Virus record (IMG/VR): IMGVR_UViG_2563366838_000005
DNA from: a virus
Taxonomy: Duplodnaviria > Heunggongvirae > Uroviricota > Caudoviricetes
Length of the DNA stretch: 48,520 nucleotides
Strand: one strand, 5' to 3'
Of this stretch, positions 20,496 through 45,877 are shown piece by piece (position 1 is the stretch's first letter; every line of letters begins with the position of its first letter). A program made the translations under genes and the position numbers. The notes beneath the pieces were generated by a model that worked only from the letters and a program-made list of their open reading frames with translations, made no database searches and was not told where the DNA came from.

Positions 20496-23300
20496 GTGAG
20501 TAAATTATTATTTACGATGACTGACGCCGGGCGTAAGGCGCTGGTTAATGCCAACAAGACTGGAACAAATAAAGTTGAGATCGTTTCTGTTGGTTTAGGT
20601 AGTAGATATTATGCCACATCAACCACACAAACAAAAATAACAGATGAAATAAAGCGACTTACCACAATAGGAGGCAAAGTCGTTTCTCCTGATACCATTC
20701 ATGTAACTGCGAAGGATGATAGTAAAGATGAGTATGTTGTCCATACAATAGGTTTGTATACAAATAAAGGAACATTGTTTGCTGTATACTCGCAAGAACA
20801 AGTAATAATAAATAAAGCATCTTCTACAATTGCTTTAATATCAAGTGATATAGCAATTAAAAATCTTGATACTAAAAACATTACATTTGGTGATGTTGAG
20901 TTTATTAACCCTCCCGCAACCGAAACTGTTGTTGGAGTAGCAAGATTTGCTAATGAACAAGAAATTGATGCAGGTACAGATGATTCCCTGGCTGTTTCAG
21001 CAAAGCGGCTTAAGCAAGCTATTGTAAAACATGAGCAATCACGTAATCATCCTGATGCAACTTTAACATCAAAAGGCATTGTTCAACTCAGTAATGCCAC
21101 CAATAGCACGTCTGAAAAGCTCGCAGCGACGCCTAAGGCTGTTAAGGCTGCATATGACCTGGCTAACGCTAAATACACCGCACAGGACGCTACCACGGCG
21201 CGAAAAGGGATTGTTCAGCTCAGTAGTGCCACTAACAGTACGTCTGAAACGCAGGCGGCAACGCCAAAAGCGGTCAAGGCAGCAAATGACAACGCAAATT
21301 CACGTCTGGCGAAAAATCAGAACGGTGCAGATATCCAGGATAAATCAGCTTTTCTGGACAATGTTGGCGTTACTAGCCTGACGTTTATGAAAAACAATGG
21401 CGAAATGCCGGTTGATGCCGACCTGAATACATTTGGTCCCGTTAAGGCTTATCTGGGGATCTGGTCTAAAGCTACCTCAACTAACGCAACACTGGAGAAA
21501 AATTTCCCGGAAGATAATGCTGTCGGTGTGCTTGAGGTTTTTGCTGCCGGCAATTTTGCAGGTACTCAACGCTTTACCACGGGAGACGGCAATGTATACA
21601 TGCGTAAACTCGCCAGTAAGTGGAATGGCACTGATGGTCCGTGGGGCGTATGGCGTCACACTCAATCTGCTACCCGCCCTTTGAGTACGACTATAGACCT
21701 GAATACGCTTGGAGCCGCCGAGCATCTTGGTTTATGGCGTAACAGTAGCTCGGCTATAGCTTCATATGAACGCAATTATCCAGAGGAAGGCGGCTTTGCT
21801 CAGGGGACGCTTGAGATCCTCGAAGGCGGGAATTATGGAAGAACGCAACGTTATACCACTCGCCGTGGAAATATGTATGTCCGCTGCCTTGCGGCAAGCT
21901 GGGATGCATCAAATCCGCAGTGGGAACCGTGGTTAAGAGTCGGTCATCAGTCAGAGAGTCGTTATTACGACGGGGATTTGAATGATGTGACTTCACCAGG
22001 TATTTACAGCGTTACAGGTAAAGCGACCAATGGTCCAATACTGGACGGAAACGGCGTGACAGTCCTCGGTATTCTGGAAGTGTTGAGGCGCTTTGATGGT
22101 GTTAACGTATGGCAGCGTTATACAACTGCCGGAACAGGTACAACCCTTAAAGGTCGCACGTTTGAGCGCGTTTTTACCGGCAGCTCATGGAGCGAATGGC
22201 GGGAAGTCTACACCTCGTATTCACTTCCCCTGAATCTGGGTATCGGCGGTGCAGTGGCAAAGCTCACCAGCCTGGACTGGCAGACCCACGACTTTGTGCC
22301 GGGCAGTCTGATAACCGTTCGGCTTGATAACATGACCAACATTCCCGACGGTATGGACTGGGGCGTCATTGATGGCAACCTGATAAACATCGCAGTTGGT
22401 CCGAGTGATGATTCCGGTACGGGGCGCTCAATGCATGTATGGCGCAGCACTGTAAGTAAAGCGAATTACCGCTTTTTTATGGTGCGTATTTCAGGAAATC
22501 CGGGAAGCCGCACGATCACGACAAGACGTGTGCCAATTATCGACGAAGCTCAGACATGGGCGGCGAAACAGACATTCAGCGGTGGTCTTTCTGGTGAACT
22601 GTCCGGCAATGCGGCTACAGCTACAAAGCTGAAAACGGCAAGGACAATTAACGGCGTAAAATTTGACGGCTCGGCAAATATTGAAGCATTTCCGCCAGGT
22701 GTTCCGTTGCCGTGGCCATCAGATACACCACCTGCGGGCTATGCAATTATGCAGGGGCAGACGTTTGATAAGGCAGCATATCCGAAACTGGCTATAGCCT
22801 ATCCTTCTGGTGTTATTCCAGATATGCGCGGCTGGACAATCAAGGGCAAACCCGCCAGTGGGCGTGCCGTATTGTCACAGGAACAGGACGGGATTAAATC
22901 GCATACTCACAGTGCCAGTGCGTCAAATACGGATTTGGGAACGAAAACAACCAGTTCGTTTGATTACGGCACGAAGACGGTCAGTACGTTTAATCATGGC
23001 ACAAAATCAACGAACAATACGGGCAATCATACGCACACTGTCGGTGGTGTTTATGGCGGCGACTCTGTCGGTGGAAAACAGCGTGTACAGGCTTCAGGAA
23101 ACAATCAGGTGTCCAGCACCGCCGGAGCGCACGCCCATACGGTGGATATTGGTCAGCATAACCACACTGTAGGTATTGGTGCCCATGCACACACTGTAGC
23201 ATTAGGTGCGCACGGACACACCATCACGGTAAATGCTACGGGTAATACCGAAAACACCGTCAAAAACATCGCATTTAACTATATTGTGAGGCTTGCATAA
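20496..23300 (+). CDS. Tail fibre protein with internal repeats and His-rich C-terminal tip
   Basis: 934 aa; tandem GIVQLSxATNSTSE..ATPKAVKAA repeats, three ~80 aa DLNT..G(I/L)W repeats, C-terminal HTH/HAH/HNH/HGH repeat series. Confidence 0.85.
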
Positions 23301-23875
23301 TGGCTTTCAGAATGAGTGCAGAAGCACAAACTATCCGCGTTTTCAATTTACTTGATGGAACCAATGAATTTATTGGCGAAAGTGACGCATATATCCCACC
23401 GTATACTGGTCTGCCTGCAAACAGTACAGATATTGCACCGCCTGATATTCCGGCGGGTTATGCAGCCGTTTTCAATGCAGATGAAATGAAATGGGAACTG
23501 ATGGAAGACCATCGCGGAAAGACCGTCTATGAAACGAAAACGGGAGCAGCCATTTATATTTCTGAACTTGGCGTATTACCTCCAGACGTGACAGCCATTT
23601 CCCCGGAGGGGGATTATCAGAAATGGAACGGCAATGCGTGGGTGAATGATGAGAATGCAGAGCGTGATGCGCTTGTCAGAGCGGCTGACTCTCAGAAGAA
23701 AGAGCTGATTGCATATGCAGGTGAAATTATTGCCACTCTGCAGGATGCTGTCGATTTAGATATGGCTACCGAGGAAGAAAAGTTAAGCCTGACACACTGG
23801 AAAAAATACCGTGTGCTACTGAATCGCGTTCAGCCGGAAAATGCCCCTGATATCGAATGGCCAGAATTAGTGTAA
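23300..23875 (+). CDS. Tail fibre assembly protein (Tfa-like)
   Basis: 191 aa immediately after the fibre gene, start overlapping its stop. Confidence 0.75.
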
Positions 23876-23896
23876 AGGCAAGATGATTTAAGGAAC

Positions 23897-23925
23897 AAAA
23901 CCGCCAATATGTTTATTAGCGGTTT
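23897..23925 (+). terminator. Candidate terminator at end of late operon
   Basis: 7 bp stem aaaccgc/gcggttt followed by T-run; long loop makes it weak. Confidence 0.3.
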
Positions 23926-24187
23926 TGCATTAAGTCAAAACAACCCTTTAACGGAGCTGGCCGCGCTGTTAAGGGATGATGTCACCTTATCTTTGAAGCC
24001 GGACAGCATATTGCTGAACGATGAGTTTACCGCAGGTTTCTGGCTGGGAATCATTGACTGGAGTTAGGCCAGTAGTATGATGCTCGCAAAACGAGATCCA
24101 ATTTAGATCCTTTTACTGGTGGATTATCGTTCGATCAGTGAGAGACTTCGTGCATGACCGAAAGTGTTGTGGTAGAGTTCTCTTAAA

Positions 24188-24202
24188 ACCACGTAACGTG
24201 GT
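24188..24202. promoter_or_regulatory. ACCAC-N5-GTGGT palindromic operator upstream of repA
   Basis: accacgtaacgtggt; same palindrome family as in the cI/cro intergenic region. Confidence 0.4.
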
Positions 24203-24245
24203 TATGATTGTGGGTGTCTGGTTGGAAAGTGACCAGATATGGAAA

Positions 24246-24354
24246 CAAAAAGCCCGCAGATAAATCTGCGGGCTTCTTGCGACATCCACGGAAAACCAAC
24301 AACAACAATCCATGGGCGCCTCGACAACTCCCATTATACGTTGGTTTTCCGTGG
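24246..24354 (-). ncRNA. Candidate CopA-like antisense RNA over the repA leader
   Basis: Minus-strand hairpin plus T5 at 24246-24274 and a 15 bp perfect inverted repeat (24286-24300 / 24340-24354) just upstream of the repA start. Confidence 0.3.
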
Positions 24355-24370
24355 ACGCAAGAGCGAACAT

Positions 24371-25219
24371 ATGGATAGACCAATGCCGTCTCTACGTTCA
24401 GCTTACGTTTGTAATTTGTCGCCGGAGTTCCAGCCTCCAAAGCACCATACGCACAAGCTGCCGCTGGTGTTATCTGATGCTTTACAGCGCATTAATGGGC
24501 GTGATCTTACGTGTGAGGTTGCGTTCTACGTTAATCAACCGTCAGAGCGGAAGCGCCGGATAAACGAGCATCGTCGTCGGGCGATTAATGCTGTGATCGC
24601 TGCGATTTTGCACCATGTAAACATCATTTCTAAGCGGGTTCTGGCTAGTGCTGAGGCGTTGGCTGATTTTTGCGGCCTGTCTACCGTATCCGAAGCTGGG
24701 AACAAGTCTATAACGCGCTGTACAAGGGCGTTGTCGCAACTGAAAGCGTTAGGTTTTATTGATTATGAACGTCGCTGGGATCGGGTGAATAAACAGTATT
24801 GGCCAGCGAAAATAGAGATTCGTGATCAACTGCTGGAAACCGTTGGTATTACTGAACAAGCATGGAGACGTGCGGTTAGCCAGAAACTTAATTACTTCAA
24901 TGCGAAGAATAGCGAACGGCTTAAAAAAGCGATAACGGAGGCTGATTATAAGCGTATTGTTATTCAGGAGCAGATGGAGAATGTATGGCGTCAGAGGAAG
25001 ACGGCCAGAGAGATAAAGGCAAAACAGAAAGCAGCGGAGAGAGCTGCGCGTCTTGTTCGGGAAAAGGGAGAGGCCGAACTTCGTCATCAAATCACCAGAG
25101 AGGTTAGTCAGGAATTTGCTGATGGCATGTATCCTGGTGCTGACCTTGCATATTTACGATCCCTCGTTGAGCAGCGTTATAACAGGTTAAGAAAGACCTG
25201 GAAATCACTCCAACATTAA
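24371..25219 (+). CDS. repA: Plasmid replication initiator RepA, IncFII RepA1-like (ORF also open from 24239)
   Basis: Segment CGLSTVSEAGNKSITRCTRALSQLKALGFIDYE resembles IncFII RepA1 as recalled; basic C-terminal region; internal ATG at 24371 gives a 282 aa product. Confidence 0.7.
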   Translation: MDRPMPSLRSAYVCNLSPEFQPPKHHTHKLPLVLSDALQRINGRDLTCEVAFYVNQPSERKRRINEHRRRAINAVIAAILHHVNIISKRVLASAEALADFCGLSTVSEAGNKSITRCTRALSQLKALGFIDYERRWDRVNKQYWPAKIEIRDQLLETVGITEQAWRRAVSQKLNYFNAKNSERLKKAITEADYKRIVIQEQMENVWRQRKTAREIKAKQKAAERAARLVREKGEAELRHQITREVSQEFADGMYPGADLAYLRSLVEQRYNRLRKTWKSLQH

Positions 25220-25850
25220 CCCACCTGAATGATGAATCCGGTTTTACCGGAGGATTATCTACGTCGCAATAAAATATCTGTTCAAAAAACAATCTAAATT
25301 AATTTTCTCTAAACCTGAACACAGCAAAAATATCGCCTTTACAGGCATCGGCTAATAAAGTTATCCACAGTTCTGATATGTATATGCAAATGGTTTTTTA
25401 TAATAGATGCACTAAACAAATAAATGCAAAATCACTTTCTTTTATTAAGACTTTCTTTATTTAACTTACACAGGCTTTGCCTGTGAATATGTTCGCCCTT
25501 GCAGCGAGCTAAAGCTCGCGCCGGTTCGAGTCGCTACGCTCAAATATACCTCCTCCGGCACTTGCCGGAGGCATGGAGCAGCCTGATCATCCTTTTCGAA
25601 ACGGCACGTTTCGAACTATACAAAATCAATTTATATAAGGCCGAAATAAGGCCTACGGCCGGGCTTTGCAGGAGGAAGGGGCGAGCCTTATCAATAAACG
25701 TCGATAAATACGCACACAGTAGCCATCAGAACGCGATAAAATGTAAGAAACATCATTTCCTATTAGACATAGAAAACTTGTCTTATACGCAATGTAGTAA
25801 ATTTCTATTGCCACATAGGAAAAGATTTCCTACCATCGTAGATATAATAA
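25220..25850. promoter_or_regulatory. Candidate replication origin region downstream of repA
   Basis: AT-rich stretch, consensus DnaA box TTATCCACA at 25361-25369, several GC-rich hairpins at 25500-25660. Confidence 0.5.
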
Positions 25851-26437: not shown

Positions 26438-26681
26438 GGCTTTCGCGTCGAAAATGAGGCGAAACTGAAAACGAGATTTCATTAACAAATAAGCAACATA
26501 AAAAACGGTGGAAAACGCCCAGGAAAACATGATCTTTTGAGCGGATTTTTTAGATCCGACAATGAACGGTGATCCGGTGGTGCCGATAACGTCCATTATG
26601 TTAAATAGCCCCGTTTTTCTTGAAATTATAACCTACGGGTTATATAGTCAGTGGTATAAACTACAGGTTATAGGATTGAGC

Positions 26682-27029
26682 ATGTGGACGGTACTTTTTA
26701 GCCAGCGATTTGACGACTGGCTAAATGAGCAAGAAGAGGCTCTTCAGGAAAAGGTTTTGGCTGATTTGAAAAATCTACAGGTTTACGGACCTGAGTTACC
26801 CAGGCCATATGCCGATACCGTAAAAGGTTCTCGGTACAAAAATATGAAAGAGCTTCGCGTTCAGTTTTCTGGCCGTCCGATAAGAGCCTTTTATGCGTTC
26901 GATCCGATTCGTCGGGCCATCGTTCTTTGTGCAGGAGACAAAAGTAACGATAAGCGGTTTTATAAAAAACTGGTGCGTATAGCTGAGGATGAGTTTGCAG
27001 CACATCTGAACACACTGGAGAGCAAGTAA
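26682..27029 (+). CDS. higB: Type II toxin, RelE/ParE superfamily (HigB-like)
   Basis: 115 aa from ATG 26682 with SD; KELRVQF..RAFYAF..IVLCAGDKSNDKR pattern; followed by overlapping HTH antitoxin; palindromic operators upstream. Confidence 0.7.
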   Translation: MWTVLFSQRFDDWLNEQEEALQEKVLADLKNLQVYGPELPRPYADTVKGSRYKNMKELRVQFSGRPIRAFYAFDPIRRAIVLCAGDKSNDKRFYKKLVRIAEDEFAAHLNTLESK

Positions 27030-27328
27030 TGAGAACATTAGATGAGGTGATTGCCAGCCGTTCACCTGAAAGCCAGGCGCGAATTAAAGAAATGGCAGAT
27101 GAGATGATTCTTGAGGTCGGCTTGCAGATGATGCGTGAAGAACTCCAGTTATCACAAAAACAGGTTGCTGAGGCGATGGGTATAAGCCAGCCAGCAGTAA
27201 CAAAGCTGGAGCAGCGCGGAAATGATTTAAAGCTGGCGACATTAAAGCGTTACGTTGAAGCTATGGGAGGCAAATTAAGCCTGGATGTTGAGCTTCCTAC
27301 AGGAAAGCGAGTAGCGTTCCATGTCTAA
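27029..27328 (+). CDS. higA: HTH antitoxin, HigA-like (XRE family)
   Basis: 99 aa; LSQKQVAEAMGISQPAVTKLE HTH; start overlaps toxin stop. Confidence 0.75.
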   Translation: MRTLDEVIASRSPESQARIKEMADEMILEVGLQMMREELQLSQKQVAEAMGISQPAVTKLEQRGNDLKLATLKRYVEAMGGKLSLDVELPTGKRVAFHV

Positions 27329-28294: not shown

Positions 28295-28357
28295 ACACAA
28301 TGCGCAAAGTGTCATTTTGACACTTTGCGAGTGTTAATATTGTTCGAGGAGGATGCT

Positions 28358-34626: not shown

Positions 34627-34800
34627 GTCTCATCAATCGTGAATGGTGGGTTATTTATACATTACCACATTTAGTGGTTTTCACATGGTAAGACGAGAGG
34701 TGGACCACAAATAGAAGGTTATTTTTTGTTTTGCCCATTGAAAAACTCACGATATGTGGTTTTAATACCACATATCGTGGTTTTAACTGGAGTTCGTTAA
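34627..34800. promoter_or_regulatory. Immunity-region operator/promoter region between cI and cro-like genes
   Basis: ACCAC-N5-GTGGT at 34664-34678 and 34767-34781, the latter within a 13 bp perfect inverted repeat (34748-34760 / 34767-34779). Confidence 0.55.
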
Positions 34801-45803: not shown

Positions 45804-45826
45804 ACCGTAACGATAACGAACAACGA

Positions 45827-45853
45827 GCCTCGGCAATTGCCGGGGCTTTTTTA
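45827..45853 (+). terminator. Rho-independent terminator
   Basis: 8 bp stem gcctcggc/gccggggc with one G-U pair, loop aatt, then T6. Confidence 0.6.
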
Positions 45854-45877
45854 CATCCAGACAAAGGAGAACATGGG

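Follow-up and report, generated by a model that had tools for sequence, protein, structure and literature searches.

The leader of the repA gene in IMG/VR record IMGVR_UViG_2563366838_000005, a tailed-phage genome (Caudoviricetes) analysed over its entire 48,520 nucleotides (hereafter, the window), appears to be a copy-number control module in which a short antisense RNA, transcribed from within a long hairpin of the repA messenger RNA (mRNA), would switch repA off by making this leader refold. To the full model, including the leader refolding, we assign a probability of about 0.55. The RNA structures concerned, their covariation among relatives, the conserved promoter and terminator signals, and a hotspot of sequence variability are all observed by computation. 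An earlier note on the window had proposed that a countertranscript pairs with the repA leader, and a predicted RNA of this kind, with its conserved promoter, terminator and structures, is the best reading of the region. The parts of the module and the gene that it would control are as follows (L and R, left and right arm of the sense hairpin; SL1 and SL2, stem-loops 1 and 2 of the antisense RNA).

24246-24279, minus strand: intrinsic-terminator hairpin of the antisense RNA, with a U-tract after it (24251-24243)
24333-24360, minus strand: predicted antisense promoter, -35 TTGCGT (24360-24355), 16-nt spacer, -10 TATAAT (24338-24333)
24243-24328, minus strand: predicted antisense RNA of ~80-86 nt, composed of a 5' tail, SL1 and SL2 (the terminator)
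24292-24311, no strand assigned: hypervariable stretch, forming the antisense SL1 loop and the 5' internal loop of the sense hairpin
24276-24281 and 24285-24300, plus strand: L, wholly covered by the predicted antisense RNA
24340-24361, plus strand: R, outside the predicted antisense RNA
24312-24334, plus strand: apical stem ATGGG/CCCAT with a 13-nt loop, CGCCTCGACAACT, from the leader fold
24370-24385, plus strand: alternative partner of R, holding both candidate start codons (24371 and 24383)
24054-24081, plus strand: predicted sense (repA) promoter, TTGACT, 16-nt spacer, TATGAT, 10/12 consensus matches, leader start at ~24088
24217-24237, plus strand: small sense-leader hairpin TCTGGT/ACCAGA with a variable loop, from the leader fold prediction
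24383-25219, plus strand: repA, 278 amino acids (aa) from the conserved ATG or 282 aa from the ATG at 24371

Two subgroups of relatives were compared with the window. Subgroup 1 comprises leaders that can be aligned with that of the window; those retrieved through RepA or by BLAST are two Salmonella types (L003; L004/L005/L011), L012, L017, ten PLSDB plasmids (L062-L071) and IMG/VR loci, and additional leaders (L022-L034) came from a motif scan of metagenomes. Members of subgroup 2 encode a RepA ~60% identical to that of the window and were found either through RepA (L018, L019, L021) or by a motif scan (L037, L040, L042, L050, L052); their leader cannot be aligned with that of the window, yet has the same layout. 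Two scans of genome contigs, one with RepA peptide patterns and the other with a DNA motif, yielded no matches.

The terminator hairpin pairs 24246-24261 with 24264-24279 (94% complementary) around a 9-bp G+C-rich core stem, GCCCGCAGA/TCTGCGGGC, closed by a 4-nt loop. The earlier note had reported a hairpin at 24251-24274 followed by T5 on the minus strand; both are present, the T-run being slightly longer (TTTTTGTTT, 24251-24243, i.e., T5GT3). Its reading as a minus-strand terminator is borne out in the relatives, where the stem pairs are kept in 100% of cases and change in a compensatory manner, with an A-U to G-C replacement in L012 and three changed pairs in subgroup 2. A simple terminator scan missed 24246-24279, a false negative that arises because maximal stem extension absorbs the T-run. 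Rfam aligned the hairpin to terminator stems of unrelated families (the CsrC 3' hairpin, E = 2.8e-4, and the Thr_leader terminator), and a search of 23500-25500 at E<=10 returned only sub-threshold structural look-alikes (Thr_leader, trpB motif, CsrC terminator), which reflect the hairpin-plus-terminator shape and not homology.

The predicted antisense promoter lies within the inverted repeat, between the apical stem and the right arm, and is the only conserved minus-strand promoter. In 9/9 leaders it scores highest by position weight matrix (PWM) among the sigma-70 candidates on the minus strand within 360 nt, always at the same position, and subgroup 2 has TTGCAT and TATAAT separated by 18 nt at the equivalent position. 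The hexamers are invariant, whereas the spacer, which is also the right arm, covaries with the left arm. TATAAT, which falls in an unpaired internal loop of the sense fold, is invariant in all subgroup-1 leaders retrieved through RepA or BLAST and in L018 and L021 of subgroup 2, most of the remaining subgroup-2 loci having been retrieved with a pattern that specifies ATTATA. All relatives thus combine, at the level of sequence signals, a minus-strand promoter with an intrinsic terminator 54-95 nt downstream. We also considered AAGAG (24359-24363) as a conserved Shine-Dalgarno (SD) sequence and rejected it, since subgroup 2 conserves the block GCAAG(A)GCGAA just as well and has no start codon after it; the antisense -35 region fits better.

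Because the conserved promoter sits inside the repeat, the predicted RNA would start at ~24325-24328, measure ~80-86 nt and hold the left arm only, rather than being the 90-110 nt minus-strand RNA that had been anticipated. It consists of an 8-nt free 5' tail, GUUGUCGA, followed by SL1 (24320-24309 paired with 24292-24281, loop 24308-24293) and SL2, the terminator. This fold is predicted in 24/24 variants (18 from subgroup 1 and 6 from subgroup 2) and has an energy of -41.1 kcal/mol in the window (z = -5.5). SL1 and SL2 together are 99% paired across the variants, with three compensatory pairs; SL1 alone is 97.5% paired; one of its pairs occurs as four pair types, and three are invariant G.U pairs, for which the sense strand would have C.A. 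From these signals, it appears quite probable that the antisense RNA exists. The longer version, in which a 90-110 nt RNA would begin within the repA coding sequence and include the entire 16-bp hairpin in the manner of CopA stem-loop II, draws on the extremely good fold of the minus strand at 24237-24362 (-68 kcal/mol, z = -9.2), but it would need an upstream minus-strand promoter, and none is conserved: the best, TAGAGA-17-TATGTT, scores 8.2 bits as opposed to 11.5 bits for the internal one and is absent in the relatives. Considering also that the wobble pairs between L and R are sense-specific and that the CopA model finds no match, we regard this version as highly improbable.

A hotspot of variability coincides with the loop of SL1. 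Among 11 plasmids retrieved by BLAST only, 14 of 20 alignment columns over 24296-24311 vary as compared to three in 24276-24295, which places the hotspot at ~24292-24311, and other parts of 24036-24811 have 0-3 variable columns per 20; a larger set behaves likewise. At least 11 alleles, differing in length and sequence, occur in plasmids that are otherwise 98-100% identical, and in subgroup 2 the variable positions are likewise found in the SL1 loop. For this stretch, the sense RNA has a predicted probability of 0.97 of being unpaired, and the antisense RNA one of 0.90. Given that incompatibility in I-complex plasmids is determined by loop and interior-loop nucleotides of the antisense RNA (PMC10724649), the hotspot is a plausible candidate for a specificity (incompatibility) determinant.

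The sense leader is equally structured. The perfect 15-bp inverted repeat described previously (24286-24300/24340-24354, 39-nt spacer) is present and is one base longer, with 16-nt, 100% complementary arms at 24285-24300 and 24340-24355 and 39 nt between them; an additional 6-bp helix, CTTGCG (24276-24281) with CGCAAG (24356-24361), lengthens it across a small internal loop. No other perfect inverted repeat in the 48.5-kb window reaches 14 nt with at most 80 nt between its arms, and a 15-nt inverted repeat arose in 0/60 first-order Markov simulations. The leader as a whole (24088-24400) folds with z = -6.8 relative to shuffles. Across 13 distinct leaders of subgroup 1, pairing is kept in 98% of cases over the apical stem, the L:R helix with its 6-bp extension and the terminator hairpin; at four pairs both sides have changed in a compensatory manner, as compared to 0-1 in slid controls, and 0/500 shuffles attain the covariation score observed. 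The compensated cases include CGG/CCG in the window, CAG/CTG in Salmonella and CCGG/CCGG in L017, as well as an A-T to T-A swap in the upper stem. Furthermore, a covariance model of subgroup 1 finds the subgroup-2 cassettes at full length (27-43 bits, E from 1e-5 to 4e-10), and in the alignment fitted to this model with subgroup 2 included, 96% of the cells are paired and 23 of 38 pairs are changed on both sides. The core of the apical loop, CCTCGACAACTCC (24319-24331), is common to subgroup 2, although its invariance cannot be weighed, being part of the retrieval patterns. This core is complementary to the antisense 5' tail, and both partners are predicted to be largely unpaired (0.86 for the apical loop and 0.99 for the tail).

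The wobble pairs separate the two strands. Several L:R pairs are U.G on the plus strand and would be C.A on the minus strand, which indicates that the long hairpin is selected in the sense mRNA; with the G.U pairs of SL1 possible on the minus strand only, each strand has its own strand-specific wobble signature. A palindrome acting at the DNA level, as an operator or a cruciform, was rejected, given that the arm sequences change while their complementarity is kept, with strand-specific wobbles.

It is conceivable that there is no dedicated antisense RNA, in which case 24246-24279 would separate the tail-fibre module from the replicon as a bidirectional terminator or an insulator, the long hairpin would act purely in cis in the sense leader, for stability or as a translational operator, and TATAAT would be kept for structural or other reasons. 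Such an arrangement would suit the weak -35, the A-tract on one side of the 24246-24279 hairpin and the T-rich tail on the other, and the sense-specific U.G wobbles, which point to selection on the sense RNA fold. It sits poorly, however, with TATAAT being unpaired in that fold yet invariant, at a fixed distance from the conserved TTGC[GA]T, with the minus-strand-specific G.U pairs in SL1, and with a variability hotspot limited to the segment that would be transcribed both ways. Moreover, the characterised members of the superfamily to which this RepA belongs are all under the control of antisense countertranscripts (PMC12361487, PMC10724649), and we consider the absence of such an RNA unlikely.

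The predicted sense promoter is the top plus-strand PWM match and occupies the same relative position in the window, L003, L004 and L017; subgroup 2 has an equivalent one, TTGACG-16-TAGAAT. Between it and the terminator hairpin, the small hairpin at 24217-24237 keeps its stem with different sequences in Salmonella, L012 and L017, and its loop differs among the E. coli plasmids. The same part of the leader contains two GATCC motifs 7 nt apart (24095-24113) and a perfect palindrome, AACCACGT-A-ACGTGGTT (24187-24203), both conserved in the Salmonella relatives, which are possible Dam/SeqA or repressor sites.

The complementarity of the predicted antisense RNA to the leader extends over the terminator hairpin, L, the hotspot and one half of the apical loop and leaves out R. 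In the model that we favour, the repA mRNA would begin at ~24088 and its leader would form the very stable hairpin of L (24276-24300) and R (24340-24361), leaving the start region open (ON). A constitutive-looking promoter within the hairpin would yield the antisense RNA of ~80-86 nt, ending at the terminator (24279-24246). Initial contact would be made through unpaired segments, that is, the antisense 5' tail with the sense apical loop and the SL1 loop with the sense internal loop, after which the duplex would extend and pull L off R. The released R would pair with 24370-24385 and bury the repA start codon or codons (OFF), with RepA synthesis dropping as the antisense RNA, and hence the copy number, climbs. 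The hypervariable loop would decide which plasmids cross-react, thereby setting the incompatibility type. Cleavage of the long duplex by RNase III, or interference between the promoters, may act alongside the refolding or in its place.

That the antisense RNA is made, that it represses and that it does so through sequestration of the start region by R is inferred, and folding predictions give the last of these steps moderate support. Removal or blocking of L is predicted to let 24339-24353 (R) form a helix of -19.7 kcal/mol with 24370-24385. L003, L004, L012 and L017 have equivalent predicted helices between R and the start region, with wobble-compatible changes and one pair changed on both sides; in subgroup 2, R is predicted to fold instead around the start codon of the first open reading frame (ORF) downstream, an AUG. 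Cofolding of the sense and antisense RNAs gives the full duplex together with the hairpin of R and the start region, 83 kcal/mol better than the separate monomers. With the antisense RNA bound, the AUG at 24383 has a predicted probability of 0.02 of being unpaired, as opposed to 0.77-0.92 without it, and the mean accessibility of positions -15 to +5 drops in 9/9 leaders, by 0.11-0.30.

The antisense RNA could be made as predicted and yet repress mainly through RNase III cleavage and leader decay, or through transcriptional interference between convergent promoters, with the refolding of R playing a minor part. The predicted duplex of ~86 bp is perfectly paired, and a duplex of this kind would be an RNase III substrate; the convergent promoters are ~300 bp apart; and the statistical support for the refolding helix is modest. 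However, cleavage inside the duplex would still separate L from R, so that refolding would ensue, RNase III cleavage is dispensable for control in plasmid R1, and the accessibility of the start region drops in all nine sequences. Repression mainly by these routes seems unlikely.

Several points weigh against the refolding model itself. The -35 matches the consensus at 3/6 positions, and the promoter is absent from the list of a generic scan. The energy of the duplex between R and the start region differs from that of shuffles at p = 0.013-0.03 in four subgroup-1 sequences, with values of 0.2 in L012 and 0.09-0.75 in subgroup 2, and the z-scores of the 3' halves range from -0.9 to -3.4. The SD-like AAGAG is itself paired in the free leader, blocking L slightly increases the accessibility near the first ATG (24371), and the model leaves unexplained both the conserved ATG at 24312 and the frame status of the ATG at 24371. 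The hotspot is A/C-rich and repeat-like, with (CAA)n and A-runs, and slippage may therefore contribute to its variability. As for the comparisons, the independent lineages are few, so that many of the compensated cells stem from few events; the alignment of both subgroups, having been fitted to the covariance model, leans toward structure; and the invariance of 24316-24342 cannot be weighed in L022-L061, where the retrieval pattern forces it.

The ATG at 24312 invites a more classical explanation, the logic of IncFII and I-complex plasmids, in which the antisense RNA would block a leader ORF starting in the duplexed region, the translation of which opens the structure for repA. This codon, located in the apical stem, is invariant in subgroup 1, its ORF (MGASTTPIIRW..., 24312-24563 in the window) always reads through R and the repA start over 32-83 codons, and leader peptides are usual in R1 and in the PK-repBA-type relatives (PMC12361487). 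Nevertheless, the ORF has no SD and is preceded by the hypervariable A/C stretch; it ends at variable places away from the repA start, and in L012 it is in a different frame relative to repA. Its amino-acid changes track the covariation of the stem rather than conservation of a peptide, the ATG and the ORF are absent in subgroup 2, where a stop occurs within 10 codons, and the Rfam models PK-repBA, PK-repZ and CopA find no match. Control through this ORF is thus quite improbable. Two related candidates were rejected. A leader peptide resembling tap or RepY was sought in this ORF and in a frame-1 ORF that ends at 24378 and has no conserved start or stop; and a pseudoknot between the apical loop and the start region lacks a conserved complementary partner, GGAGU (24425) and UUGUCG (24417) not being conserved in Salmonella.

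The product of the controlled gene belongs to the IncFII/IncL-M initiator superfamily, as judged from its matches to PF02387 (150.5 bits, cutoff 22.9, E = 8e-44) and to the NCBIfam model RepA_IncFII_LM, NF040977 (232 bits, cutoff 70). It does not reach the strict IncFII equivalog TIGR03474 (79.3 bits, cutoff 446.9), the closest plasmid RepAs outside the lineage are ~37% identical, and no relative was found in the PDB. The earlier note had the RepA start at 24371, which is indeed one of two in-frame ATGs in the window; the start conserved in all relatives is, however, the other, at 24383 (MPSLRS...), whereas the ATG at 24371 is in frame in the window and L017 and out of frame in Salmonella and L012. 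Public annotations of RepA also disagree, with proteins of 326 aa (from 24239), 282 aa (24371) and 278 aa (24383) in L001 and L062-L071. The ATG at 24239, chosen by PGAP for the 326-aa protein, was rejected as the RepA start: Salmonella, L012 and L017 lack it, and the additional residues would be translated from the terminator and long hairpins. The annotation error is systematic, many records beginning RepA at an unconserved ATG and thereby engulfing the whole regulatory RNA gene. In subgroup 2, an ORF of 158-162 aa lies between the control cassette and repA (2516-3004 in L021, 2528-3004 in L018); this ORF is paralogous to the N-terminal half of RepA (31% identity, E = 4e-17) and has a stop overlapping the repA ATG (ATGA), which suggests a translationally coupled truncated copy of RepA.

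Downstream of repA, one further element of the replicon can be proposed.

25361-25470, no strand assigned: candidate oriR, the sole perfect DnaA box in the window (25361-25369, TTATCCACA) followed by a stretch of 26-33% GC

The DnaA box lies ~140 nt past the repA stop and, together with the low-GC stretch, is likely to be the oriR, arranged as in IncFII replicons.

Upstream, the replicon adjoins tail genes.

20496-23300, plus strand: tail fibre gene, upstream of the replicon
23300-23875, plus strand: tail-fibre assembly gene (PF02413)

Between the tail-fibre assembly gene and repA, ~500 nt of the plus strand contain no convincing gene. The 1.4-kb region is found at 97-100% identity in >60 non-mobilizable plasmids of ~47-50 kb from E. 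coli, E. albertii, E. fergusonii and Klebsiella, and also in three Yersinia myophages (vB_YpM_39, 41 and 44). The family is present in 71 of 5,426 complete E. coli genomes and is plasmid-borne every time. One carrier is E. coli ATCC 25922, with the element on plasmid NZ_CP009073.1 (12930-13250). Being common to plasmids and Yersinia myophages and, in E. coli, always plasmid-borne, the region marks the host element as a phage-plasmid. The earlier note, which had placed the replicon in a phage genome, is corroborated in this respect by the tail fibre genes upstream and by the Yersinia myophages and ~48-kb plasmids that share the region. Homology across the family begins only at ~24036, just upstream of the predicted sense promoter.

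Farther upstream (23880-24046 in the window), the neighbours vary and include a hin-type invertase (Yersinia phages and many plasmids), a transferase (L001) and a 52-codon remnant ORF (the window); 23894-24025 is 87-89% identical to the tail-fibre/invertase junction of P2-like phages. Within the tail-fibre assembly gene (tfa), 23643-23841 gives a sub-threshold Rfam match to IS009 (52 bits, gathering score 117), also seen in L021, which probably reflects homology of the tfa gene rather than a small RNA. About 1.3 kb downstream of repA, at 26562-27328, a gene for a RelE/ParE-family toxin is accompanied by one for a protein with a helix-turn-helix domain, the presumed antitoxin, according to the annotation of the identical plasmid NZ_CP032259. 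Strong hairpins elsewhere in the window are located at 28303-28329 (GCAAAGTGTCA-TTT-TGACACTTTGC), at 34748-34780 (CACGATATGTGGT with ACCACATATCGTG) and at 45827-45853 (GAGCCTCGGCAATTGCCGGGGCTTTTTT), the latter resembling a plus-strand terminator and weakly matching the subgroup-1 covariance model. The matches of this model on the minus strand and at 45819-45874 involve the terminator hairpin only.

Phage-plasmids are common, and how they set their copy number and exclude relatives has been little studied. No account of this replicon was found in the literature on the Yersinia phages, its accessions or antisense control of IncFII type in phage-plasmids; the paper on vB_YpM_HQ103 was ruled out as a source, as it deals with a different, 32-kb phage. 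If correct, the model would provide a concrete control circuit for one phage-plasmid family and would show that an IncFII-type initiator can exchange its control module for one of a different build, the protein staying 60% identical; the 20-nt hypervariable loop would then be a predictor, readable from sequence, of incompatibility or of superinfection cross-reaction between these elements. More tentatively, one may envisage that a lineage of enterobacterial phage-plasmids gave up the ancestral pseudoknot and leader-peptide control of its IncFII/IncL-M-type RepA for another riboregulator, with the antisense promoter in the long leader hairpin, L stripped away so that R buries the start, and the hypervariable loop diversifying under selection into many mutually compatible replication or immunity types, a scenario that we see as possible and no firmer than that.

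Among the known systems, the IncFII plasmids R1 and R100 were those that the earlier note invoked. The window shares with them the initiator superfamily PF02387 and an oriR with a DnaA box downstream of repA (PMC12361487), a predicted short countertranscript gene in the repA leader with two stem-loops and a promoter located downstream, in the sense direction, of the target, and, by prediction, negative post-transcriptional control. Unlike in R1 and R100, the predicted antisense promoter of the window is embedded in the long hairpin of the sense strand; of the two stem-loops, the 5' one carries the variable recognition loop and the 3' one is simply a terminator. In R1, CopA blocks translation of the tap leader peptide, and CopB is also present (PMC12361487), whereas the action proposed here is refolding. 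Control of the CopA type, as suggested earlier, finds no support: the model RF00042 (CopA) has no match on the minus strand of 23500-25500 even at E<=10 with permissive filters, no conserved short ORF stops at the repA start in the leaders compared, so that a tap-like leader peptide is missing, and no copB-like gene lies between the sense promoter and the antisense gene. The latter is a weak test; the only ORF there, a 41-codon GTG ORF (24138-24263), overlaps the terminator hairpin, and relatives carry 1-nt indels in it. The previous interpretation was thus right in kind (a countertranscript, an IncFII-family repA, a phage-plasmid) and wrong in the family and extent of the RNA, and probably wrong in mechanism.

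The refolding logic has precedents in Gram-positive plasmids, namely the attenuation of pT181 and pIP501 and the occlusion of the rep ribosome-binding site by RNAI of pSK41, in which the antisense RNA binds an upstream segment and the freed downstream partner forms an inhibitory structure. The logic is the same as the one proposed here; the Rep families and hosts are unrelated, and there is no relationship in sequence or in Rfam. In pT181 and pIP501 the inhibitory structure is a transcription terminator, whereas in the window there is none after R: the hairpin of R and the start region is followed by CCGUCUCUAC and not by a U-tract, and the only plus-strand terminator-like site in the scan, at 24642, is inside repA.

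A further known system is that of the I-complex and IncL-M plasmids, in which RNAI acts with a leader peptide and a pseudoknot (PK-repBA, PK-repZ), the control type of the nearest RepA relatives outside the lineage. The model RF01089 (PK-repBA, gathering score 45) matches L072 with 56.7 bits (544-663), L016 with 49.3 bits (2863-2989) and, below gathering, L073 with 38.6 bits (553-678), whereas neither RF01089 nor RF01087 (PK-repZ) has a match in the window at E<=10 or in L021 at E<=0.1. L016, found in a conjugative context, has a RepA 63% identical to that of the window, and L072, a pKPC_UVA01-type plasmid, one that is 37% identical; both give weak CopA-like matches on the minus strand (34-37 bits), and L072 encodes a 17-codon leader peptide with a stop overlapping the rep start. 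Like that of the window, their leader has a terminator hairpin on the minus strand and forms a structure that closes off the rep start; in the PK-repBA-type relatives, ATTATA (TATAAT on the minus strand) also lies just downstream of the target, preceding the leader peptide there. Loop nucleotides set incompatibility in the I-complex (PMC10724649), a candidate role for those of the window. The window and subgroup 2 differ in having no short leader ORF with a stop overlapping the rep start. Of the GGCG/CGCC pseudoknot, inspection of the sequence reveals CGCC in the apical loop and no conserved GGCG in 24353-24400, where only L012 has one. Instead of a leader peptide and a pseudoknot, the apparent activating device is an RNA arm, L, that would titrate the sequestering arm R. 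As L016 carries a classical leader despite its 63% identical RepA, the control module and the initiator have different histories, and as the classical pseudoknot leader persists in the RepA relatives nearest to the lineage but outside it, it is the module that appears to have been replaced. The simplest reading of these sequence comparisons is that the phage-plasmid lineage exchanged the pseudoknot and leader-peptide device for an RNA arm titrating a sequestering arm.

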